This document shows, piece after piece, positions 3,152 to 64,000 of a stretch of 64,000 nt of DNA (the first letter of the stretch is position 1; each line of letters starts with the position of its first letter). The translations under genes and the position numbers were made by a program. Under the pieces are notes generated by a model. The model saw only the letters and a program-made list of their open reading frames with translations. It was not told where the DNA came from and did not search any database. The DNA is from an uncultured archaeon (GTDB lineage: Archaea; Thermoplasmatota; Thermoplasmata; Thermoplasmatales; Thermoplasmataceae), in assembly GCA_000965745.1 (NCBI GenBank), contig CP009479.1:2162688-2226687 (forward strand), written 5' to 3'.

Positions 3152-3691
3152 ATGGCAAGAAAAGACTTTGATGATTGGGATGAAGATTTCTTTGGAGACA
3201 TGTTCAGTGAGTTCGGCTTTGACTTCAAAAAGATGAACGAGCGCATGAGGAAGATATGGGACAGGATGCTTCACGACCCTGATTTTGCCACACAGGAACC
3301 TTACGTTTACGGGTTCACATACAAGGTCGGGCCGGAAGGCAAGCCCTATTTCCAGGAGTTCGGGAACATGCCGGGAATGAGGAGAGAAAGGGCAAACATC
3401 CAGCAGAAAGACGTTAGAGAGCCAATAACAGACATTACAGAAGACAAGGACAAGTCGTACTTCACGTTCGAGCTTCCAGGAATATCAAAAGAGAACATAG
3501 ACCTGAAAGTATCTTCCAGAAACGTAACCATCAGTGTAAAAGAGGGCACAAGGAAATACTACAAGAGCATCGATCTCGACTATGAGGTTAAGCCCGAATC
3601 TGCCAAGGCCAGGTTCGTGAACGGCATACTTGATGTTTCGCTGGAAAAAACAACGAAAGAAGGCTCCGGAAAAACCATAGACATCGAGTGA
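3152..3691 (+). CDS. hsp20: Archaeal small heat-shock protein Hsp20
   Basis: YGFTYKVGPEGKP..QEFGN, REP.TD, ELPG, A.F.NGILDV alpha-crystallin motifs; ATG 3152 with SD GAGGTG. Confidence 0.93.
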   Translation: MARKDFDDWDEDFFGDMFSEFGFDFKKMNERMRKIWDRMLHDPDFATQEPYVYGFTYKVGPEGKPYFQEFGNMPGMRRERANIQQKDVREPITDITEDKDKSYFTFELPGISKENIDLKVSSRNVTISVKEGTRKYYKSIDLDYEVKPESAKARFVNGILDVSLEKTTKEGSGKTIDIE

Positions 3692-6880: not shown

Positions 6881-7792
6881 TCATTCGCCCGCGATTACCT
6901 TCCTTTTTTCCCTGAACAGCTTCTCTATGTCGCCGTAGCCAAACCTGAACTCACTCATTGGAGTTTCTATGGCCTTCGATGAAACGATGATGCCCATGAT
7001 TATGGAATCGCTGATGCTCATTCCCTTCCACAGCCCCATGTACAGGCCTGACCTGAAAGAGTCACCTGCGCCTATTGTGTCGTACACTTTCTCTGCCGGA
7101 AGGATTGAAAAGTGATTGGAATCCCCATCCCGGAAAGCTGAAACCCCGCTCTGGCCACCGGTTATTATTATCGTTTCAATCTCCGACGTCAGTTCCTCAT
7201 GGGACTTTCCTGTCAGCTCCTTAAGTTTTTGGTATTCCGCTTCGTTCCCAACAAACATGTCTGCACGGTCTATGAATTTTTGAGCAGTTTCCCTGCTGTA
7301 CCTGTAGTGTATTTCCTGTCCCGGGTCAAATGTAACCTTGCTGCCCCCGAGCAGATCGAAAACTTTTGCGTATTCCTCCGGAGGGCCTGTTGAAAAATGT
7401 GCCCACTTGTAATCAGAATCAGCTGAAAAATTTACTGCGGGAGACCATGAATCCATGGGGCCCTGGAATACGTATGCCACCTGGTCATTGCCGTCGGAAG
7501 ATATATAGCAGACCGGACCGTAGCTGTCTTTCAGCTGGTCGACGTGTTTCAGGTCGATGCCAATGGACGAGAGGTATTCAAGGTATTCAGCGTGGGTCTT
7601 CGGAGATACTGCTGAGTAAAGGTCAAAATCAAGCCCAAGTTTTCTTGAGACTATTGCAAAATTCCCGGCCGTGCCACCAAAATTCTCGGATACGTCTGTC
7701 ACGTTGACCGACCCGACGCGCGGGAGTACTGGTACCCTTATCGATACATCAATGTTTATGTGACCAAAAAAAGCAAGGAAAGATGATGTCAT
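6881..7792 (-). CDS. PfkB-family carbohydrate/nucleoside kinase
   Basis: FGGTAGN, FDPGQE, DTIGAGDSF. Confidence 0.9.
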   Translation of the reverse strand: MTSSFLAFFGHINIDVSIRVPVLPRVGSVNVTDVSENFGGTAGNFAIVSRKLGLDFDLYSAVSPKTHAEYLEYLSSIGIDLKHVDQLKDSYGPVCYISSDGNDQVAYVFQGPMDSWSPAVNFSADSDYKWAHFSTGPPEEYAKVFDLLGGSKVTFDPGQEIHYRYSRETAQKFIDRADMFVGNEAEYQKLKELTGKSHEELTSEIETIIITGGQSGVSAFRDGDSNHFSILPAEKVYDTIGAGDSFRSGLYMGLWKGMSISDSIIMGIIVSSKAIETPMSEFRFGYGDIEKLFREKRKVIAGE

Positions 7793-7808
7793 CTCTCCCT
7801 TGATCCAA

Positions 7809-8465
7809 CTATCGTATTTGGTTATTGAGGTCTCTCAGGACGTTTCTGATTGTTACTTCGGAAACTCCTGCGAATTTTGAGATCTCGCCCTGAGTTCTCA
7901 GTTCACCCCTCTTCTGGCAGGAGATATACAAGCTTGCAGCTGCAATGGCGGAGGGCTTGAATGTTTTTGATCTCTTCTTCAGAGATTCTGAAAATTCAGA
8001 GCACGTGTCCTTTGCCATCTGGACGGTTCCCTCACTGATCATCAGCTTCTTCCCTATGGATGCTATCACAGCGTTGTGGTCAGGCATGCTCCTCTTGTAT
8101 TTTGGCTCCAGGTCAAGGATCTTCTTGTATGTCCTCATTACAAGAACCGGGTCCAGCTGGTCGGGGAACCTTTTGCTCTTTGACTTCCCATAGAACGAGT
8201 TTGGAGCAACATAGGTGTTCAGTTCCCTGGCGGCCGCAATTATGCACGCTGCTACGGTATACCTGAAATCCTTGCCCCTCATAAGATCCTTCTTGGTAAC
8301 ATTCTGGTAAACCTCAAGGCTCTTGATCTGAAGCTCCTTGGGAAGATTCAGAAATCTGTTGAGCTCGTCATAGTACTGCAGGAAAATCCTGTCAGATACA
8401 TTCCTTCTCATTATTGAAATTTTGAACTGGTTAAACCTTTTGGCAAATGATATTGAACTGTCCAT
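7809..8465 (-). CDS. TFB (TFIIB)-like protein, cyclin repeats only
   Basis: LMRGK....VAACI..AARE and AAASLYI....RTQ.EI...AGVSEVTIRN; no N-terminal Zn-ribbon. Confidence 0.8.
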   Translation of the reverse strand: MDSSISFAKRFNQFKISIMRRNVSDRIFLQYYDELNRFLNLPKELQIKSLEVYQNVTKKDLMRGKDFRYTVAACIIAAARELNTYVAPNSFYGKSKSKRFPDQLDPVLVMRTYKKILDLEPKYKRSMPDHNAVIASIGKKLMISEGTVQMAKDTCSEFSESLKKRSKTFKPSAIAAASLYISCQKRGELRTQGEISKFAGVSEVTIRNVLRDLNNQIR

Positions 8466-53526: not shown

Positions 53527-53930
53527 AGAACGCTAACATCATAGCCACATCAGGAAAAAGGAAGACAGCCATCGCCAGGGCTGTTACAAAGAAAGGCAAA
53601 GGCATAATTACCATCAACGGTGAGCCTGTTGAATTTCATCCTGTTCTGATTCTTAAGGACAAGATAATGGAACCACTCAAGCTTCTGGGAGACAGAGTCA
53701 ATGAAGTGGACATAGAAGTAAAGGTTGCAGGCGGCGGAAACACCGGACAGGCTGATGCAGCCAGAACAGCAATAGCAAAGGGTATAGTGCAGTATTTCAA
53801 GGACGACTCCATAGAAGATATGTACAGGCAATATGACAGGACCCTTCTTGTAAATGACATTAGAAGAAAAATGCCCAAGAAACCTGAAGGAAAAGGTGCA
53901 AGGGCAAGGAAACAGAAATCATACAGGTGA
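53523..53930 (+). CDS. rps9: 30S ribosomal protein S9
   Basis: GKRKTAIARA, GGG..GQA, GARARKQKSYR. Confidence 0.96.
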   Translation: MKNANIIATSGKRKTAIARAVTKKGKGIITINGEPVEFHPVLILKDKIMEPLKLLGDRVNEVDIEVKVAGGGNTGQADAARTAIAKGIVQYFKDDSIEDMYRQYDRTLLVNDIRRKMPKKPEGKGARARKQKSYR

Positions 53931-54156: not shown

Positions 54157-54229
54157 GGGACCGTGGGGTAGCTTGGTATCCTACCAGCTTGGGGTGTTGG
54201 TAACCTGAGTTCAAATCTCAGCGGTCCCA
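54157..54229 (+). tRNA. tRNA-Pro(GGG)
   Basis: GGGACCG/CGGTCCC acceptor stem, anticodon arm CCAGC-TTGGGGT-GTTGG, T-loop TTCAAAT; starts 1 bp after rpoN stop. Confidence 0.93.
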
Positions 54230-54239
54230 TCATATTCAT
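54225..54239 (+). other. Candidate 15-bp target site (duplication) of the casposon, TCCCATCATATTCAT
   Basis: Last 5 nt of tRNA-Pro plus 10 nt, directly before GGGGATATA; second copy expected outside the window. Confidence 0.6.
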
Positions 54240-54283
54240 GGGGATATAGATAAGACCGAAAAACGTGCCGCTTTTTATATCCC
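54240..54283 (+). repeat. Probable left terminal inverted repeat of the casposon
   Basis: Starts GGGGATATAG; internal IR GGGATATA (54241-54248)/TATATCCC (54276-54283); true TIR length unknown without right end. Confidence 0.65.
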
Positions 54284-54295
54284 ATTTTAAAAATT

Positions 54296-54392
54296 TTAGT
54301 CGCCTTTATCCGATTTCAGGTAAATCTCTAAAAGGGTTTTGGAAATTCTTGATTGAGTCTTCAACTAATTTCCATTTCTGTTTGAAATTCTT
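54296..54392 (-). pseudogene. Degenerate duplicate of casposon polB 3' end
   Basis: Reads NFKQK/NGN*LKTQSRISKTLLEIYL vs polB NFKQKIRNGNGLKNKSKISKMLFESYL; shared 16-mer at 54375-54390 and 55813-55828. Confidence 0.75.
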
Positions 54393-54421: not shown

Positions 54422-55663
54422 TCATTTATTTTGATCTCCCATCCATAAGGGTCTACTGAGTATGCATTGTAATACAATGATAGTGGGTACAAAGAAATCA
54501 TAAAACCACTGAGAAATGGTAGGTTCTTCGACAATATTCGAATGAACATAGTCATTAAGCTTGGAATATATCTCCGAGTAAATTATATCTCCAAAATATG
54601 AACCTTTTGCACTCTTTTGTATCTCTCTAAAAGAATCTACTACACACGAATTAATTCCCTCTAATTCTTCCCTTTGTAATTGAAGTTTAATCAACTTAGA
54701 CATTGCTCTAGTGTCAGGTCTTGAATAAATCCCGTAAATGGTTGCATTGTTCTCACAATCAGAATAACCACAAAGATAACCTTCTCCCTTATCAAATTCT
54801 GGCCCAATGAAAGTTAACTGAGAAAGTTCTTGTTTCAGGTCTTTAGTCAGTTCATTTTTGATTCCGAATCTCTTTTTTAAATCTTCTAACAAATTGCCTT
54901 CGTGTTGCTTGCACGCTCTCAAAGTAAACTCATCGTTGCTCATCAATATCCAGTAAAAATATTCCGTATTCCCAAGAGTCTTAGTTGCGATATCTGGCCA
55001 TTCATCAGTATCCTTTATCAAGTTCATAAAAAATTCATTGAGTGATTTTTCCAATAATTTTTTCAATCTTTGCTCTTCCTTGGTTGTAATTTTATCCTTA
55101 TCAAAATCAAACTTTGAAACGATATCTGGATAAAATTTATCTGATAGTTCTCGCAATGAGCTTATTGCACGTTTTCTTTCTTCCCCAAATTCTAATATTG
55201 GAAGAACTAAACCGTCTAAACTCAAAGGTTTCATTTTATCCCAATATCCAGAAAAAAAGGCATCTGCCATTGGATTAGTGCCTTCCTCATTTTTTTGGCT
55301 ATCTGGTACCCATGAAGAAACAGTAAACAGACCTGCGAAAAGAAGGTCTAACACCGATCTAATCTCCCTAAGTGAATACTTGATGTATCCCTCTCCAGCC
55401 AACTTTATTGAAATCCCTAATTCTCCAAAAATATCTGCAAGTAGAAGTTTAAACTGTTCTTCAATCTTCTTTCTAGTATTATCCGATGAAATAGATTCCA
55501 CATACCATGAATAATTGTCAAAGAGTTCAGATAAGTGGGAAATAGCTTTAGAAATCTCTTCATAAGTTGGATATGGAATATTGAAAATTTCATAAAAATC
55601 TTTGAGAAGAAGTCCTTTTTGTGCCCATTGGGTGATTCCGATGATATCTAGTTTTCTTGACAC
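54422..55663 (-). CDS. Casposon cargo protein, possibly HEPN-like (DUF5677-type)
   Basis: 413-aa ORF with LREIRSVLD and IYSKLNDYVH motifs; TTTATAAA box at 55681-55688. Confidence 0.6.
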   Translation of the reverse strand: MSRKLDIIGITQWAQKGLLLKDFYEIFNIPYPTYEEISKAISHLSELFDNYSWYVESISSDNTRKKIEEQFKLLLADIFGELGISIKLAGEGYIKYSLREIRSVLDLLFAGLFTVSSWVPDSQKNEEGTNPMADAFFSGYWDKMKPLSLDGLVLPILEFGEERKRAISSLRELSDKFYPDIVSKFDFDKDKITTKEEQRLKKLLEKSLNEFFMNLIKDTDEWPDIATKTLGNTEYFYWILMSNDEFTLRACKQHEGNLLEDLKKRFGIKNELTKDLKQELSQLTFIGPEFDKGEGYLCGYSDCENNATIYGIYSRPDTRAMSKLIKLQLQREELEGINSCVVDSFREIQKSAKGSYFGDIIYSEIYSKLNDYVHSNIVEEPTISQWFYDFFVPTIIVLQCILSRPLWMGDQNK

Positions 55664-55728: not shown

Positions 55729-56539
55729 CTAAATGTCCGTCAAACTCAAATAACTCTCAAAAAGCATCTTGCTAATCTTTGATTTGTTCTTCAATCCATT
55801 TCCATTTCTGATTTTCTGTTTGAAATTCCTTAAACCCCTTTCTGAAATACCCAACGCCTTGACTTCACTGGGCTTGAGTTTTAACGTCCATTGCATAAAC
55901 GCTTGTTTGTTCTCGTATTCAAGATAAGAATCATTGCTTACCCCGAATACACTAACTTCATCGATATTATTTGATTCCTTCCCAATGTATCTGATTCGGT
56001 CTGCGAATACGTGTTTCCTTTGGGCCTTGTTGTTAACATAATCGAACTTGTTATCGTTATGTCTCACGTACGCTGTTAACACATCTTCAAGGGATTTCCA
56101 GTATTCATTAGAAGGCAAAGTCAATGCAATTGAAGATTTTCCAGTCCTGTAATCTACAAATTCCCTATACTGGATTCCGTTTATGTCCTTTGAAAATGGT
56201 AATGACGGAATAACATCATTCTTCTCAGACCCTACGAGAATGAAATTGAAGGGCTTTATCTGTCTATTAAAGGGCTTCTTGTGATTCATCTCCTTGAAGC
56301 GATTAAGAATTGAAGGTTTCGAGATGGTAATTTGAGATACTGCAATCTTTTCTGAGTAATCTTCAAATTTATTGTTCAAGATATCTTTCCAAATCTGTTT
56401 TCCATTTATACCAAGGAGATGGCCCAATCCATGGGTGGAATACTTGAGTATTTCTACCTCTCCTTTGACAATCCTATACAGACAATATCGCTTTGCTGAA
56501 ATTCCATAAAACAAGATATCGTTCAACGGATTCTTGTTT
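55729..56539 (-). pseudogene. polB: Casposon family-B DNA polymerase, C-terminal fragment
   Basis: FYGISAKRY (KxY motif), HGLG, IKPFNF, IGKE; cut by IS3 left end. Confidence 0.85.
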
Positions 56540-56617
56540 TGTGCTGGCCCCTTAAATAATTGGACAACATTGGCTTATAGTAATAGAAAAGTATATATAG
56601 GGGGGTTCTAGGGGGAA

Positions 56618-56920
56618 ATGACTCGCAGATACTGGAAAGCGGAAGAGAAACTGGCACTCATCAACGAGATCAAAGAAAGCGGACATGTCGTTGAAACCTG
56701 CAGAAAATATTCTGTGGATCCATCCATGTTCTACCGTTGGAAACAGGCCTTCGATGCACTAGGCATGGATGGGCTCAGATCCCGTACAAGGTCCTTGGAA
56801 CCAGGCCTCAGAAAGCTGAAGAAGGAGAACGAGAGATTGAAGAAGATGCTTGCAGAGAAGGAACTGGAGGTATCACTGCTCCAGGAAGCATATAAAAAAA
56901 CGAGGAGGAAACCGCGTTGA
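56618..56920 (+). CDS. IS3 transposase OrfA (HTH + leucine zipper)
   Basis: CRKYSV.PS.FYRWK, LKKENERLKK.LAEKELE. Confidence 0.92.
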   Translation: MTRRYWKAEEKLALINEIKESGHVVETCRKYSVDPSMFYRWKQAFDALGMDGLRSRTRSLEPGLRKLKKENERLKKMLAEKELEVSLLQEAYKKTRRKPR

Positions 56921-57813
56921 TCAATGAGTATGCTGGACGTGGGCTCTCAACGACCAGAATCCTGGAACTTCTAAGGATACCACGGAGCACATTCTATCAT
57001 TCATCGCCTGCATTGCATCTCAAGAGAGGGAGGAAGCCTTCATCGATGACTGAACGCATTGTTGGCCAGGATATCATAATGATTCCCGATGATCAGGTCC
57101 TTGCCGACATCATTGAGTTGCTGTCAAGGGAATTTGTATGCTATGGATACAGGAAGGTCACCAAACATTTGCAGCGCACTGGCTACAGGATCAACAGGAA
57201 GAAGGTCTTCCGCATCATGAAAGAGAACCATCTTCTCAACCACACATACAACTACCGCAGCCCTGCAAAGAGGGTGGTTGAATCCATTGTCAGGGTTCAT
57301 AACCCGAATAAAGTCTGGGAGATGGACATCAAGTATGTGTACATACAGGGAGAGAATCGGACAGCATACCTGTTTGCAATGATTGACTGTTATACAAGAG
57401 AAGTTGTCGGAAAGTACCTGGGATACCACTGCACCTCTTCAGATGTGAAGATGGCAATGGATTTTGCCTTCATGGACAGGGGAATAGAGGCAATATCCAG
57501 TGTCAGGATCCGCAGTGATAATGGGACTCAATTCGTATCACGGATAGTGGAGCTGTTTCTCGCTTCATCCCATATCGAACATGAGAGGATCCATCCTGCA
57601 ACGCCCAAGGAGGACGGTTTCATCGAATCCTTCAATTCCATCCTTGAGAAGGAAGTGATCAGAAGGTTCGAGTTCTCTTCATTCCAGGATGCTGATGACA
57701 CCATTGATAGGTTCATTGCATTCTACAACAACGAGAGACTACACTCAGCCATAGGCTATAAAGCACCAAGGGAGGTTTATGAAAGATGGAAAGAAAATCT
57801 AATAGAAGAATGA
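56917..57813 (+). CDS. IS3 transposase OrfB (DDE)
   Basis: YGYRKV, WEMDIKY, SDNGTQF, IESFN, YNNERLHSAIGY..P; -1 frame relative to OrfA. Confidence 0.93.
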   Translation: MINEYAGRGLSTTRILELLRIPRSTFYHSSPALHLKRGRKPSSMTERIVGQDIIMIPDDQVLADIIELLSREFVCYGYRKVTKHLQRTGYRINRKKVFRIMKENHLLNHTYNYRSPAKRVVESIVRVHNPNKVWEMDIKYVYIQGENRTAYLFAMIDCYTREVVGKYLGYHCTSSDVKMAMDFAFMDRGIEAISSVRIRSDNGTQFVSRIVELFLASSHIEHERIHPATPKEDGFIESFNSILEKEVIRRFEFSSFQDADDTIDRFIAFYNNERLHSAIGYKAPREVYERWKENLIEE

Positions 57814-57863
57814 GCATGACTCATAAGCCAATCCTGTCCACAATTAGGGGACCAAACCACAGA

Positions 57864-58586
57864 CTAATACAATTCAGATGTTATTCTAACGTCATTTATG
57901 TTGTAGTCGATGTATTTCTCGTTGATTTTCCCATGCTGTTCAATCTGAGTTTTTCTTGAAACGCTAAAATCCCTGCATGCAGAATCCAGAGAATGTGATC
58001 TGTCAGTTAAAGCAAAAGTGAGGGTCTTGAGGTCAACAAAGTATCCGGAATAATGCCTGTATTTCTTGTCGCTAGCTTTTCTCATGGGTTTCGCAAAGGA
58101 AATGAAAGACCTTTTCTGGTCTATGTTCTGTATCCGAATTCGTGGATTCCTCACATCCTCTGACAGCTTCAGTGAAAATCCGTCTTTTGTTTTGCGTGAG
58201 ATTCCATATCCAATGGCCAATCTTGACAGGTCAAAGGGCAAATTGAAGCCAATGACCTCAGCCCGCATTCTGAATGCGTATGGGTAGAACACATTATCCA
58301 CAAAGTCCCTGATTCGCATAACAACTATGTTATTCTCAGACCCGTAATCTTCTATGATTTTCCCGTCATTATCAGAAATATCACCATAAAACAGATACCA
58401 GTCCTCTTTGAAGCCGGTGCTAATCCTTGTTCTGATAAGACATGATCCAAAATTCAGGTTCTGATACTGGTCTGTGGTGGTTTCAGTATCAAGAATCAAA
58501 ACGATGTTTGAATTGTGAGATTCCGGTTCTTTGTGTTTGAGTTCCGACCTGTTATCTGTGTATGCCCTCACAAAGATATCGCTCAC
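57864..58586 (-). pseudogene. polB: Casposon family-B DNA polymerase, N-terminal 3'-5' exonuclease fragment
   Basis: ExoI LDTETT, ExoII GFNLPFDL, ExoIII YNINDV; ends 2 bp from IS right end. Confidence 0.87.
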
Positions 58587-58984
58587 AGGATCACCGGATA
58601 TCTTGATGTCAGGTATTCAGCAATCCTCTTGTATATGCCAATACCAGTTCTTTCATGCTTCAATTCACAAATGTCAATAATTCCCCTCTCCAAGAGAATT
58701 TCAGAATTCTGGTAATTCCATAATCTATGTTTGTCTGTTAGCTTCCTATGACATTCCAAACATACCGTTATAACCTCGTTGCCATGACTCCTGCCTCTGA
58801 TGTGATGTACTTCCAACTTTATTGGTGATCTGCAAATCTCACACTCGTTCTTTTTGTCTCTATGTTCATTCTCTAAAATATCTGTTATCCAGTCTTTTGC
58901 CTCTTGGTATTCATTGTCTACTATTTCCTTTGCTCTGAACAGGGTCTCGAATATTGTGCTGGATATGGATATCTTGGAAATCAA
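58583..58984 (-). CDS. HNH endonuclease
   Basis: CEIC...LEVHHI......N..TVC..CH. Confidence 0.85.
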   Translation of the reverse strand: MISKISISSTIFETLFRAKEIVDNEYQEAKDWITDILENEHRDKKNECEICRSPIKLEVHHIRGRSHGNEVITVCLECHRKLTDKHRLWNYQNSEILLERGIIDICELKHERTGIGIYKRIAEYLTSRYPVIL

Positions 58985-60339: not shown

Positions 60340-60968
60340 TGGCTTATGACAAATTCCGAACTCAAAAGGAAACGAAAGACAAGAATGAGAGGAAAATTTT
60401 GAATTTGCTCTATGATTCACCAATGAGATTCAAGGACTTACTTGAAGAAACAAGACTGTCAAGAGCTGGTCTTGATATTATATTGAAAAGACTTCAAGAC
60501 ACAAAACAGATAGAATCCATTATCGATGGTGGGAAACCTGCTTATTCACTAACAAAGAAAGGGGAGAAAACAGTCAAATCTATCCCCATTATTCAGGATA
60601 ACATAGAATCGATACTCAATGTAAAACACGAATATTCCAATGAAATGGGAAAATTTCGTCTTGGATATAAGGGAATAGACTTTGATGTGTTGAGGGATGC
60701 CCAAGTAGATGCCAACCTCACAAACACCTTTGAGGAAATTGCCAAGGAATGTCTCAAGAAATCCGAGAATACAATAGCAGATATTCCTGATATTGTCAGG
60801 GATAAATCAGAACTCAAAGGAAAAATGGTTCTTGCTCTCACAATAGATTTTGATGACATGAGAGAGCAATTTATGAAAAGAAACAATAAAGCTTGGAAAA
60901 AATTTGGCCTGAAATGGGAAAATGAGGAAGGTTGGGAAAGACTATTATCAGGGGAGGATCCAAAATGA
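60339..60968 (+). CDS. wHTH (MarR/ArsR-like) transcription regulator
   Basis: KIL.LL...PMRFKDL...T.LSRAGL...LKRL...Y.LT.KG. Confidence 0.8.
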   Translation: MAYDKFRTQKETKDKNERKILNLLYDSPMRFKDLLEETRLSRAGLDIILKRLQDTKQIESIIDGGKPAYSLTKKGEKTVKSIPIIQDNIESILNVKHEYSNEMGKFRLGYKGIDFDVLRDAQVDANLTNTFEEIAKECLKKSENTIADIPDIVRDKSELKGKMVLALTIDFDDMREQFMKRNNKAWKKFGLKWENEEGWERLLSGEDPK

Positions 60969-62230
60969 ACCCATTGCTGTTATCTGGATTTGGAATAAGC
61001 ATTGAGGTTAACAAAGCTCGCCTGACCATAAAGCAAAAGAATGACATTTTGACGTTTGAGCCTCACAGAATGCCATACGATTCCATTGTCATTGACGGTC
61101 ATTACGGTTCTATGAGTTTTGAGGCCATGCGTTGGTTATCCAAACATGATGTACCCGTAATTTTGTTAAACTGGAATGGCAATCTTTTATCAATAATGTC
61201 TCCAAAAGAGGGCAATAGTGGTCAACTGAGAATGAAACAGTACGAAAAATACCTTAAAAAAGAGGAAAGAACGGTAATAGCAGAAAAAATAATTAAAGAA
61301 AAAATAGGAAAATCGCTTGCTTTGCTTGAAAATTTAGCAGATTTTCATCAGGAAATAAACTTTGAAAAAATTAAAAAGGCATTTTCTAAGGAATTTGAGG
61401 ATTTTAACCTGAAAAAAGAGAAAATAAACATTCTAAAAGATGAAAAAACCAAGAAAAATAAAACAAATGCAGAAAAAAGGGATTTAAAAAAGAAAATAGC
61501 TGACCTAATGATGTATGAAGGCAGAATAGCATCAGCCTACTGGTCAGAATTGTCAGGAATTTTCAATAAAATAGCACCAGAATTTAATTTTGAGTCCAGA
61601 AAAAATCTCTCTTATTCCTGGAATATGAATGCATCAGACCCGATAAATGCACTACTGAATTATGGATATGCAATTCTTGAAGGAATGGTCAGAAAATACG
61701 TAAACACAATAGGGCTTGACCCATCTATTGGATTCTTGCATGAAATAGCACCCTCAAAATATCCACTGGTATATGATTTACAGGAATTGTTCAGACACGT
61801 TGTGGATTATTCGGTTATACAGATTCTTGAATCCGGTTTAAAAAAATCAGATTTCATTATCACTGAGAATTATCACATCCGGTTGAAGCCCAATACTGCA
61901 AGGTTATTGATTGAAAGAATAAAAGAGAATTTCAATCAACGTTATGATTTCAGAAATAAAAAGCATAGCCTTGAAAATATAATGCTTGAGAATATTCGGG
62001 AATTCAGCAAATATCTGGTGGATAAAAAAAATACACTTGATTTTGTAATGCCTGATATTGAGATAAAGAGGAATGACAGCACCAAGGTTCGGAAAAAAAT
62101 TGAGTCAATAACACCAGAGGGAAGAAAAAAACTAAAAATCAATAAATCTACATTGTGGTATCAGCAAAAGAAAATTAAAGAAGGGAAGCCGGTTAAACTC
62201 TATGAGAAGACTAAAGTGAGAATCTCATGA
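60965..62230 (+). CDS. cas1: Casposase (solo Cas1 with C-terminal HTH)
   Basis: YEG..A..YW, DPINALLNYGY, GLDP.IGFLH, LVYDLQELFR, C-terminal LKINKSTLWY; ATG 60965 overlaps upstream stop. Confidence 0.93.
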   Translation: MNPLLLSGFGISIEVNKARLTIKQKNDILTFEPHRMPYDSIVIDGHYGSMSFEAMRWLSKHDVPVILLNWNGNLLSIMSPKEGNSGQLRMKQYEKYLKKEERTVIAEKIIKEKIGKSLALLENLADFHQEINFEKIKKAFSKEFEDFNLKKEKINILKDEKTKKNKTNAEKRDLKKKIADLMMYEGRIASAYWSELSGIFNKIAPEFNFESRKNLSYSWNMNASDPINALLNYGYAILEGMVRKYVNTIGLDPSIGFLHEIAPSKYPLVYDLQELFRHVVDYSVIQILESGLKKSDFIITENYHIRLKPNTARLLIERIKENFNQRYDFRNKKHSLENIMLENIREFSKYLVDKKNTLDFVMPDIEIKRNDSTKVRKKIESITPEGRKKLKINKSTLWYQQKKIKEGKPVKLYEKTKVRIS

Positions 62231-63144
62231 ATAGCGGTAATTTTCCTAAATTTGATGAATTTTTATCCCCAATACTGAATTCCTGCAAGGATAGACAAGA
62301 GCATACACTTTCAGAGACCATAGAGAAAATGGCCACTGAATTCGGAATGAGTGATAACCAGAAAAATGCACTTTTACCAAGCGGTAAACGAACATATATT
62401 TATGACCGGGTTGAATGGGCCATCACTTATCTTGTTCAAGCGGGATTATTAGAAAGAACTGGACGGTCAAAGTTCAGAATTTCTGATGCTGGCTTGACAG
62501 AGCTTCCTGTGATGCCAAAAAAAATATCTCACTCCTATCTGCAAAAGTTTCCGTCTTTCGTAAGATTCAAGGAACTTCGACATCCAAAAAAACAAAATAC
62601 TGATGACTCAAATGGTATGACCCCCGATGAGGAACTAGAAGTTCTCTTTGAAAGAAGGGAAGACATTCTGATACAGAATTTGCTAAGTTCTATCTCCAAC
62701 ATCAAACCGTCAGACTTTGAAAGACTCATTATAGATTTGGTTCTTGCTCTTGGCTATGGCAAAAATCATGAAGAAATGGCTAGAGTTTTGGGGAAGTCAG
62801 GCGACCAGGGAGTTGACGGGGAGATATCTCAAGATAAATTGGGATTAGACAAGATTTATCTTCAAGCAAAAAAGTGGGATTCCAAAAGTTCAATTGGGTC
62901 TGGTCAAATAAGAGATTTCATAGGTGCGTTAACAATTAAGAACGCTCTAAAGGGGATTTTTATAACGACAGCTTCTTTTTCAAAGGATGCTAAAGAAACT
63001 GCCTTGAAAGATAACACTCACAAGATAGTTCTGATAGATGGAAATGAATTGGCAAGTTTGATGATTGAACATGGGATTGGAGTAAGAACTGTCAGAAATT
63101 ATGAATCAAAGGAAATTGATGAGGATTACTTTGAATCATTTTGA
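62227..63144 (+). CDS. mrr: Mrr-family type IV restriction endonuclease
   Basis: Mrr_N (LPSG....DRV.WA..YL..AGL) plus SGDQGVDG, YLQAKKW, GIFITT, LIDG. Confidence 0.93.
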   Translation: MNSGNFPKFDEFLSPILNSCKDRQEHTLSETIEKMATEFGMSDNQKNALLPSGKRTYIYDRVEWAITYLVQAGLLERTGRSKFRISDAGLTELPVMPKKISHSYLQKFPSFVRFKELRHPKKQNTDDSNGMTPDEELEVLFERREDILIQNLLSSISNIKPSDFERLIIDLVLALGYGKNHEEMARVLGKSGDQGVDGEISQDKLGLDKIYLQAKKWDSKSSIGSGQIRDFIGALTIKNALKGIFITTASFSKDAKETALKDNTHKIVLIDGNELASLMIEHGIGVRTVRNYESKEIDEDYFESF

Positions 63145-63158
63145 ATTGGTGAATTGAA

Positions 63159-64000
63159 ATGAAGAATTCCGGGGGTCACGAAGAATACAACATTGATTTC
63201 GAAAGAATTGTAGAGCTCATATCAAAATTTGAACATGCCAAGAAATCCGGTGAAATCAAGAATTACAATGAAGAATCAACAAAGAAGGATTTCATCTTAC
63301 CTTTGTTTGAAGCTCTTGGATGGAATGTATCCAATAGAGCCAAGAAAAACGATTCCATAAGTGCGGAAGAAACCATTTCCAAGAAGAGAGTGGATTATGG
63401 ATTCCGCATAAACGGTATTCCCAAGTTTTTCCTTGAAGCAAAATCCCTGAAAGAAGATTTCATACATACCAACAGGTCTTATGTCACACAGGCAATAGAT
63501 TATTCGTGGATGAAATCGTGCAGTTGGGCCATACTTACAAATTTTGAAACCATATCGGTAATAAATGCAGACATAAGAGAGAGCAATTTCACCAACAGTA
63601 TTTTCTTTACACTTCATCCAAGCGATTTCCTTAATGATGACAGATTCACACTACTTTCAAGAGATGCCATAGAGAACGGTGAGCTTGACAAACTTGCTAC
63701 AAAATGGGGAAGGAAACAGGTCAAAAATCCAATCAATAAACAACTTCTACAGGACATGATACATTTCCGTGAGATTCTTTCAAAGGATATTGTGAAAAAT
63801 AATCAAAACAAGCATCTAACTCAAGAAGATTTAGATGAATCGGTCCAAAGGATTCTTGACCGACTCATTTTCATAAGAAATGCTGAAGATAGGGAACTTG
63901 AAGAAAATCGTTTGCAGTCCGATCTAAGGCAATGGGCATCAAAAGGGAAGGGTCAACTGGTCAGAGAAATTTCAAAGGTATATGCTTATTTCGATCAACA
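63159..64000 (+). CDS. Type IIG/HsdR_N-like restriction-modification enzyme, N-terminal part (runs off window; absent from ORF track)
   Basis: NEESTK..FI.PLFEALGW, RVDY, FLEAK, QA..Y, ILTNFE, QRILDRLIFIR.AEDR; no stop to window end. Confidence 0.85.
   Translation, partial: MKNSGGHEEYNIDFERIVELISKFEHAKKSGEIKNYNEESTKKDFILPLFEALGWNVSNRAKKNDSISAEETISKKRVDYGFRINGIPKFFLEAKSLKEDFIHTNRSYVTQAIDYSWMKSCSWAILTNFETISVINADIRESNFTNSIFFTLHPSDFLNDDRFTLLSRDAIENGELDKLATKWGRKQVKNPINKQLLQDMIHFREILSKDIVKNNQNKHLTQEDLDESVQRILDRLIFIRNAEDRELEENRLQSDLRQWASKGKGQLVREISKVYAYFDQ

Follow-up and report, generated by a model that had tools for sequence, protein, structure and literature searches.

A casposon (a Cas1-driven transposon) of a Thermoplasmatales-like archaeon has lost the polymerase core of its family B DNA polymerase gene (polB) beside an insertion sequence (IS) of the IS3 family, and we consider an IS-associated deletion, in a polB gene hit by an active element of this family, to be the best explanation (probability of around 0.8). 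Here we analysed a 64,000-nucleotide stretch of an archaeal genome (the window; positions refer to it unless given as genome bases). The IS3-family element separates an exonuclease piece of polB from a C-terminal piece, the motifs of the polymerase core occur in neither, and this copy of the IS lacks the target duplication that its sister copies have. The ends and the Cas1 of the surrounding casposon are intact.

The host element of the broken polB is a complete 13.2-kb family-2 casposon at tRNA-Pro that wraps round the ends of the contig (Table 1). The 3′ end of the tRNA gene overlaps the left copy of a 15-bp target duplication; the right copy lies past the end of the window, at genome bases 3409-3423, and the right terminal inverted repeat at genome bases ~3349-3408. 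A 31-nt pattern of these repeats occurs twice in the genome, once per casposon end. The casposon frame is established by the tRNA-Pro gene, the 15-bp duplication, the inverted ends, Cas1, HNH and HTH. The family-2 core set (HNH, winged-helix/HTH and the broken polB) is present and syntenic with the intact element of genome G114, in which polB is intact (88% amino acid identity) and which served as our reference for DNA comparison. The HNH gene is 88% identical and syntenic in G114, and the 216- and 157-aa ORFs have full-length matches of 87% and 75% in its casposon, with no family match in Pfam, PHROGs or NCBIfam. The 413-aa cargo ORF has no match in these three collections either, and is missing from the G114 casposon. 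A polB tail fossil also lies within the casposon (54296-54392), and a further polB remnant is found ~9 kb before the window.

Table 1 Features of the casposon and its integration site in the window
Feature	Position	Strand	Evidence
tRNA-Pro (GGG), casposon integration target	54157..54229	+	ARAGORN
Left copy of 15-bp target-site duplication, CCCATCATATTCATG	54226..54240	.	Exact repeat, window joined to genome start
Left terminal inverted repeat of casposon	54241..54300	.	Reverse complement of right end matches left end
413-aa cargo ORF between polB and left end	54422..55663	-	ORF list
polB 3′ fragment (KxY motif, thumb, C-terminal extension)	56539..55729	-	Translation, alignment, P0004 identity, G114 DNA homology
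IS3-family insertion sequence, 1320 bp, TG...CA ends	56540..57859	+	Pfam, NCBIfam, comparison of three identical copies
IS3 orfA	56618-56920	+	HTH_Tnp_1 7.6e-14 (Pfam)
IS3 orfB, -1 frame	56917-57813	+	rve 5.5e-20 (Pfam)
polB 5′ fragment (3′-5′ exonuclease domain)	57860..58586	-	Translation, homologue alignment, own-genome match, junction alignment against G114
HNH endonuclease, family-2 casposon core gene	58583..58984	-	Pfam HNH 1.1e-4, PHROGs HNH
Two conserved casposon ORFs, 216 and 157 aa	58981..60101	-	Full-length G114 matches
Winged-helix/HTH protein, 209 aa	60339..60968	+	Weak HTH matches HxlR and HTH_5; 86% identical in G114
Casposase (Cas1-solo with C-terminal HTH), intact	60932..62230	+	PF01867 7.1e-57
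Mrr-type restriction endonuclease, intact cargo	62227..63144	+	Mrr_N and Mrr_cat; 89% identical full length in G114
Type IIG-like restriction-modification gene, 5′ part	63159..64000	+	HSDR_N

By translation and alignment, the 5′ fragment of polB comprises codons 1-242 plus 1 nt. It contains a 240-aa ORF (58586..57864, minus strand) and a TAG (57864-57866) at the position of Gln241 of homologues; its own-genome match covers residues 1-243 of a full-length homologue with 1 TAG. Exo I (LILDTETT), Exo II (GFNLPFDLSRL) and Exo III (YNINDV) are present in the ORF, and the Exo residues D33/E35, N115/F118/D119 and Y228/D232, invariant in 22 homologues, are kept. The 3′ fragment is out of frame and encodes 270 aa (~residues 604-873 of the intact protein); its KxY motif (ISAKRY) begins 12 residues into the piece and aligns with the invariant K620/R621/Y622. 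Each piece matches one protein family with E about 1e-140, and on these matches the split is not a chance pattern. Neither piece reaches the Pfam threshold, nor does P0004, the closest known relative with an intact polymerase, and searching PDB and Pfam with the pieces on their own was uninformative. More distant homologues match PF00136 (2.6e-9) or PF03175 (3.2e-8), and a profile of 22 homologues matches Pol alpha and Thermococcus PolB chains weakly (E about 1e-3).

A sequence-only reading of this DNA had described polB as split by an IS3 element and missing its polymerase core, and had proposed aligning both fragments to full-length casposon PolB. That description stands. Full-length homologues are 870-885 aa (~875 aa), and ~residues 243-604 are absent from the window. 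Motif A (YLDFTSMYP), motif B (KIIANATSYG) and motif C (YCDTDS), at D317-P323, K487-G496 and D567/D569 in homologues, fall within alignment columns 241-606, covered by neither piece. DNA homology with the intact G114 gene reaches both ends of the IS, skipping 1084 bp. Searching the 2.23-Mb genome itself with a full-length homologue recovered the two polB pieces and one small older remnant and nothing else, and the core was found nowhere. Without the deleted palm, fingers and polymerase motifs, the exonuclease-only ORF and the 3′ remnant are predicted to be incapable of polymerising DNA.

Homologues that naturally lack the segment were not found among those examined: neither full-length nor short relatives show an internal deletion, and the 430-540-aa homologues, considered as natural core-less forms, were rejected as colinear N-terminal truncations. 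The missing core (P0004 residues 244-606), compared with short proteins, yielded no fragment of the window’s own lineage; the two best candidates, P0127 and P0153, come from different lineages, P0153 showing 88% identity with the 5′ piece. Three loci with an apparent large insertion in polB (L068, L072 and L074) proved to contain the fossil of a polB tail and, after it, a second polB, without similarity to IS3. The polB query was unmatched in three genomes of the same genus.

The IS that lies between the pieces has the termini TGTGCTGG... and ...CCAAACCA, an 18-nt inverted-repeat core (56561-56578 and 57823-57840) and an A7 run (56894-56900) within the overlap of orfA and orfB; its NCBIfam transpos_IS3 match scores 197 bits against a cut-off of 160. 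The genome has three full copies, 100% identical, and the ends were placed by comparing them. Whereas each of its two sister copies sits between perfect 4-bp duplications (CCTT/CCTT and AAAG/AAAG), the copy in polB has none (GTTT versus CAGA). The earlier reading had thus correctly noted a missing duplication and a left flank of GTTT; its right flank, GACT, is corrected to CAGA, with the end of the IS three bases further in. Absence of the duplication at this copy and its presence at the sister copies is the mark of a later rearrangement, and for this reason IS-associated deletion is the best explanation. The same contrast points to what had been suggested before, an IS-mediated adjacent deletion or recombination between two IS copies.

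In such an IS-associated deletion, an active IS3-family element would have inserted into the casposon polB, and the adjoining 1084 bp (codons ~243-604, with palm, fingers and motifs A, B and C) would then have been lost. Two routes fit equally well. In route (a), two copies in the same orientation would insert at the present junctions, and homologous recombination would remove the core with one copy. In route (b), after a single insertion, one end of the IS would attack a nearby site of the same molecule and generate an adjacent deletion. Both would leave one IS between unrelated 4-bp sequences, as observed, and neither is demonstrable, as the deleted side is lost and an intact copy of the exact lineage was not found. 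Metagenomes scanned for an intact, near-identical element gave no match above 88%. Route (a) matches the deletions of the Escherichia coli rbs operon by an adjacent IS150 (IS3 family), which are attributed to recombination between two identical elements in a passage of Raeside et al. (2014, PMC4173774) citing Cooper et al. (2001). [quoted passage not shown]

Metagenome data were used in the form of Logan contigs rather than raw long reads. In the best-matching run (X1), contigs cross both IS junctions of polB. Every other IS-end flank listed for this run belongs to a known genomic copy and no IS-core junction is among them (16 loose ends lie outside the listing), and the depth of the IS is 42 versus about 14 for unique flanks, which fits the three assembled copies. 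These observations weigh against an assembly artefact, in which two IS copies around a retained core would have been collapsed by the assembler. The IS is a 1.3-kb exact repeat, and the contig starts at the first base of another IS, so repeats did shape the assembly; however, the core is absent from the whole of a 99.4%-complete, single-contig genome, and we regard such an artefact as extremely unlikely.

Run X1 also holds a second allele at the IS site of polB. In one contig (depth 7), 56540 is joined directly to 57860 with no IS present. Should this be a deleted allele that never had the IS, the simple order with the IS first would be wrong, and the core would have been lost independently of the IS (by slippage, illegitimate recombination or as a natural core-less variant), with the IS landing later on the scar. 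An insertion into an old scar should, however, have left a 4-bp duplication like those at the other two copies, and simple insertions do leave duplications in this genome, such as the 8-bp duplication at a second IS described below. The second allele also has a different base at 57866, where the TAG stop codon begins, which, as we infer from the contig ends, would be expected of an intact gene with Gln there. As no internally deleted homologue was seen among the relatives examined either, we consider a deletion that preceded the IS very unlikely. The inactivation of polB is probably still variable within the population. Runs X9-X14 contain parts of the stretch only, for the most part the IS, or else relatives, and were set aside as evidence on habitat or strain.

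With P0004, the 5′ piece shares 90% identity and the 3′ piece 98.5%; on these identities the window polB is a mosaic relative to P0004, and recombined with another casposon at some point. A chimera might produce such a pattern, if two related casposons (for example, in tandem at tRNA-Pro) carried the IS at different places in polB and recombination between the IS copies fused the arms and deleted what lay between. The 3′ part is usually the less conserved in other relatives, and tandem and remnant casposons are known (PMC4046053). A chimera would also suit the polB tail fossils that lie beside a further polB in metagenome loci, the fossil at 54296-54392 of this casposon and the additional remnant ~9 kb before the window. 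Nevertheless, the same mosaic can come equally well from ordinary homologous exchange in either lineage, whether this preceded or followed the deletion, and the genome has just two casposon ends. Moreover, in run X4 the abundant strain matches the window at every base of 55791-56513, after which 7 of the 27 bases leading to the IS junction differ; this places the lineage switch 26 nt away from the IS, not at it. We therefore think a chimera unlikely and retain the IS-associated deletion.

Outside polB, the casposase had been called intact-looking, and this is borne out: the 432-aa protein aligns end to end with the Methanosarcina mazei casposase (6OPM, 4.6e-78, up to residue 424) and keeps the E/H/E catalytic residues equivalent to E162/H232/E247. 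The accompanying claim that defence genes were kept holds for Mrr, which is intact, but not for the type IIG-like restriction-modification gene: G114 has it as one 899-aa ORF, but in the window casposon it is cut at 64000 by a second IS. This element (ISH6/IS1-like, identified by transposase matches) occupies genome bases 1-1268, its first base being exactly the start of the contig, and has a clean 8-bp duplication, GATCAACA, at 63993-64000. All of its copies are 100% identical. Because this is true of both ISs, the insertion and deletion events look recent. The suggestion that the element was possibly becoming a fixed defence island is not supported, in view of the split restriction-modification gene, the identical IS copies, the same-genus genomes that have no polB match and the second allele in X1. 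That the neighbouring genes are intact is explained more simply by too little time to decay than by selection.

With no other casposon polB in the genome, it is a fair inference from gene content that the element has lost its autonomy and no longer has an enzyme of its own with which to copy itself. Since the ends, the target duplication and the casposase are all intact, the PolB-less casposon could in principle still be excised and integrated by Cas1. It may be a natural ‘mini-casposon’ that is excised and reintegrated by Cas1 alone, or it may be retained in the population for its Mrr cargo, which would be a first step in the domestication of Cas1; we find these readings improbable. If such an element moved by Cas1 alone, casposon PolB would be dispensable for movement, and the second X1 allele would be the inactivation caught while still polymorphic. 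In the published mini-casposon experiment, the host still had a resident PolB (PMC10359463).

The element shares with AciBoo-C1 and other family-2 casposons (Krupovic et al. 2014, PMC4046053; Beguin et al. 2016, PMC5137440) the Cas1-solo with a C-terminal HTH, a family B polymerase, HNH and HTH proteins, terminal inverted repeats, a 14-15-bp target duplication, integration at the 3′ end of tRNA-Pro and a host related to Thermoplasmata. Unlike those casposons, it has a polB pseudogene without motifs A, B and C, a cargo consisting of the 413-aa ORF without assigned function, Mrr and the type IIG-like restriction-modification gene, and two IS insertions. IS elements also parasitise MetArv-C1 and NitAL212-C1, in which the ISs (ISNCY, IS1595) have reported inverted repeats and target duplications and are thus simple insertions (PMC4046053). 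The second IS of the window casposon behaves like these cases, whereas the IS3 copy lacks a duplication and is accompanied by the loss of 1084 bp of polB. Inactivation and decay in place are likewise known for MetBur-C3 and the decaying second element of M. psychrophilus, through amber mutations or loss of inverted ends (PMC4046053); in the window casposon, by contrast, the lesion is an IS-linked deletion within polB, and both the inverted ends and Cas1 remain intact.

The main use of the finding is in annotation: both polB ORFs belong to a single pseudogene and should be labelled as its fragments, the copy of the IS in polB should be flagged as rearranged, and the casposon should be drawn across the ends of the record. 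We conclude that the loss of polB reflects the ordinary, probably recent, decay of a mobile element rather than a new kind of system, and that it provides a clean natural example of a self-synthesizing transposon that loses its polymerase while keeping its integrase and ends.

The genome is a single contig of 2,226,687 bp (99.4% complete) from a Thermoplasmatales-like archaeon, and the window is its final 64 kb. The ribosomal protein genes L18e, L13 and S9 stop at 53930, and at around 54 kb G+C drops from about 0.47 to about 0.36. The two copies of a 15-bp target duplication enclose long imperfect inverted repeats (1 mismatch in the first 31 nucleotides), the 31-mer of which occurs in two places in the whole genome, one at each end of the element. 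The duplication and the repeats thus delimit an element of 13.17 kb, two insertion sequences included, that starts at window position 54241, crosses the contig end and stops at genome base 3408 (genome bases are numbered from the start of the contig). In its genes, the structure of its ends and its tRNA-Pro target, it matches the family-2 casposons, of which AciBoo-C1 is an example (PMC4046053; PMC6977970). Our verdict is that the element is a decayed new member of this known casposon family, bearing a textbook insertion sequence (IS) scar.

Features of the casposon and its surroundings (window positions unless marked as genome bases; genes 1–8 run from left to right)
Feature	Position	Strand	Details
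tRNA-Pro(GGG)	54157–54229		
Target duplication, left	54226–54240		15 bp, CCCATCATATTCATG; directly after tRNA
Target duplication, right	genome 3409–3423		15 bp, CCCATCATATTCATG; past the contig ends
Fossil polB 3′ tail	54296–54392	minus	NFKQK..., then RNGN*LKTQSRISKTLLEIYL past frameshift
Gene 1		minus	413-aa unknown ORF
Gene 2		minus	polB, broken
polB 5′ piece	58586–57864	minus	240-aa ORF with Exo I, II and III
polB 3′ piece	56539–55729	minus	270 aa; begins 12 residues upstream of KxY motif (ISAKRY)
Gene 3		minus	HNH
Gene 4		minus	two small conserved ORFs
Gene 5		plus	winged-helix protein
Gene 6		plus	Cas1 (PF01867, 7.1e-57)
Gene 7		plus	Mrr
Gene 8		plus	type IIG-like restriction-modification gene
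Second IS	63993–64000 and genome 1–1276		1268 bp; 8-bp duplication GATCAACA
Older polB remnant	genome 2153436–2153911		residues ~636–794, 77–81% identity; 7437–7912 of the stretch before the window, ~9 kb upstream
Possible older element	genome 3424–5709		beyond casposon right end
Second copy of tRNA-Pro 3′ end	genome 5693–5709		17 nt, AATCTCAGCGGTCCCAT

The two polB pieces flank an IS3-family element (56540–57859), as the sequence-only reading had recognized. Searched against a database, the 5′ piece retrieved 468 proteins longer than itself; close relatives have 870–885 amino acids, and the best match, P0004, is 90% identical. The window pieces occupy alignment columns 1–240 and 607–887; columns 241–606, which neither covers, hold motifs A (YLDFTSMYP), B (KIIANATSYG) and C (YCDTDS), which bears out the earlier claims that the polymerase core is missing and that all three motifs are absent from both pieces. 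Across 22 homologues, with identities as low as 39%, residues D317, S320, Y322, P323, K487, N491, Y495 and G496, as well as D567, D569, K620, R621 and Y622, do not vary, so the intact family looks like an active polymerase and the catalytic part is gone from the window copy. Nor do the homologues examined naturally lack the segment: those of 430–540 amino acids, considered as internal-deletion forms, proved to be colinear truncations in which the start of the core is still present. A full-length homologue used as query found no core elsewhere in the same genome, matching both pieces and the small older remnant. The core is lost rather than relocated.

The IS carries orfA (HTH_Tnp_1) and, in the −1 frame, orfB (rve), with an A7 run within the overlap, and its transpos_IS3 score is 197 bits (cut-off, 160). 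Three full copies, 100% identical, are present in the genome, together with a 463-bp partial copy (a 5′ fragment, 100% identical; genome 735224–735686) and a 75%-identical relative (709392–710618); the fragment and the relative suggest further IS-linked rearrangements in other parts of the genome. Comparison among the genomic copies fixed the ends in polB as TG at 56540 and CA at 57859. Perfect 4-bp duplications (CCTT and AAAG) flank the full copies at 1.11 Mb and 1.64 Mb, and none flanks the copy in polB (GTTT on the left versus CAGA on the right); the earlier observation of a missing duplication therefore holds, with its right flank, GACT, misplaced by three bases. The second IS of the casposon (ISH6/IS1-like) serves as an internal control: it has a clean 8-bp duplication, and its sister copy has the duplication AAAATAAG.

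A related genome, G114, contains a syntenic casposon that likewise lies beside a tRNA-Pro end and whose polB is uninterrupted (88% amino acid identity to P0004 over residues 1–867). DNA homology with the window extends from the start of the gene as far as 57860, then picks up again at 56539, with 1084 bp of G114 skipped in between; the T at 56540 is assignable to either polB or the IS. The 5′ part ends one base after codon 242, and the 3′ part begins with the last base of codon 604; removal of the IS would still leave the two pieces in different frames. Codon 241, four bases from the IS, is TAG, where relatives encode Gln (CAA in G114). A lone IS copy that has unrelated flanks and stands in for part of the target gene is what an IS-associated deletion typically leaves behind, which supports the original reading of the lesion. 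After a second IS3 insertion, the two identical copies could have recombined with each other, a route documented at Escherichia coli rbs for IS150, also of the IS3 family (PMC4173774); or one IS end may have attacked the same molecule. The retained flanks fit both routes alike.

Read evidence consisted of Logan contigs from metagenome runs, of which X1 holds 96% of the sampled words and may be the source sample of the genome, so that its support is not independent. Short X1 contigs span both IS junctions (56511–56567, depth 6.5; 57831–57896, depth 11.2). The remaining IS-end flanks listed for X1 all belong to known genomic copies and the IS depth of 42 is about three times that of the flanks (about 14), both of which argue against a collapsed repeat with two IS copies around a hidden core. 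Another X1 contig (depth 7; shorter side 30 letters, intervening letters not given) links 56540 to 57860. Flank contigs in X1 end at 56540 and begin at 57867, from which we infer a second allele that branches there and differs at 57866. This is the first base of the TAG codon, as expected of an intact allele with Gln241, which we consider more likely than an IS-free deleted allele; whichever it is, the locus appears to be polymorphic in X1. In relatives from runs X4, X9 and X10, contigs continue from 57860 directly into core sequence, and in X4 likewise beyond 56513.

Identity to P0004 is 98.5% for the 3′ piece and 90% for the 5′ piece; among other relatives, conservation is lower in the 3′ part. 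An abundant X4 strain is 100% identical to the window over 55791–56513, after which 7 of 27 bases differ up to the IS (74% identity). This places the lineage boundary 26 nucleotides from the IS junction, which argues against two casposons having simply fused by way of their IS copies. The switch is a recombination boundary beside heterology, and the mosaic fits homologous exchange halting where homology ends.

The casposase, previously noted as intact-looking, is intact: Cas1 (432 amino acids; match to the Methanosarcina mazei casposase structure 6OPM, 4.6e-78) has counterparts of E162, H232 and E247, and its C-terminal HTH is preserved. Alignments to G114 cover nearly the full length of Mrr, HNH, the winged-helix protein and both small ORFs, with no stops. 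The restriction-modification gene, a single 899-amino acid ORF in G114, is split by the second IS, whose 399-amino acid transposase has weak ISH6/IS1 and IS1/IS1595 zinc-domain matches; the contig starts exactly at the first base of this IS, and an identical copy lies at genome 319654–320921. A polB query had no match in the three same-genus genomes (completeness 88–96%). Identical IS copies and the second X1 allele point to a recent event, and recency, rather than selection, accounts for the intact neighbours. The proposal of a fixed, domesticated defence island is thus not supported, given the split gene, the recent event and the lack of same-genus matches.

The fossil polB tail adjoins the left inverted repeat, below the 413-amino acid ORF; the beginning of this stretch is also found in G114, with other cargo there, which suggests a site of cargo exchange that has a duplicated polB tail as its boundary. 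In several metagenome contigs (loci L068, L072 and L074), another polB closely follows a tail fossil. No casposon ends were found near the older polB remnant, and the sole tRNA in the 17-kb stretch analysed there is a tRNA-Val. Beyond the right end, a possible integrase C-terminal fragment, a nucleotidyltransferase–HEPN pair and the second tRNA-Pro end look like an older element integrated at the same tRNA and displaced by the casposon.

Across the order, 31 of 169 genomes (this one included) have polB matches, only two with an uninterrupted full-length gene. Most are 3′ remnants that begin near residue 585 or 740 and reach the end, so decay of polB is common; such remnants and the tail fossils fit repeated integration and decay at one site. 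In published work, a mini-casposon was mobile with no polB in cis, but its host contained a resident casposon (PMC10359463). As this genome has no other casposon polB, self-replication by the casposon's own enzyme would have been lost.
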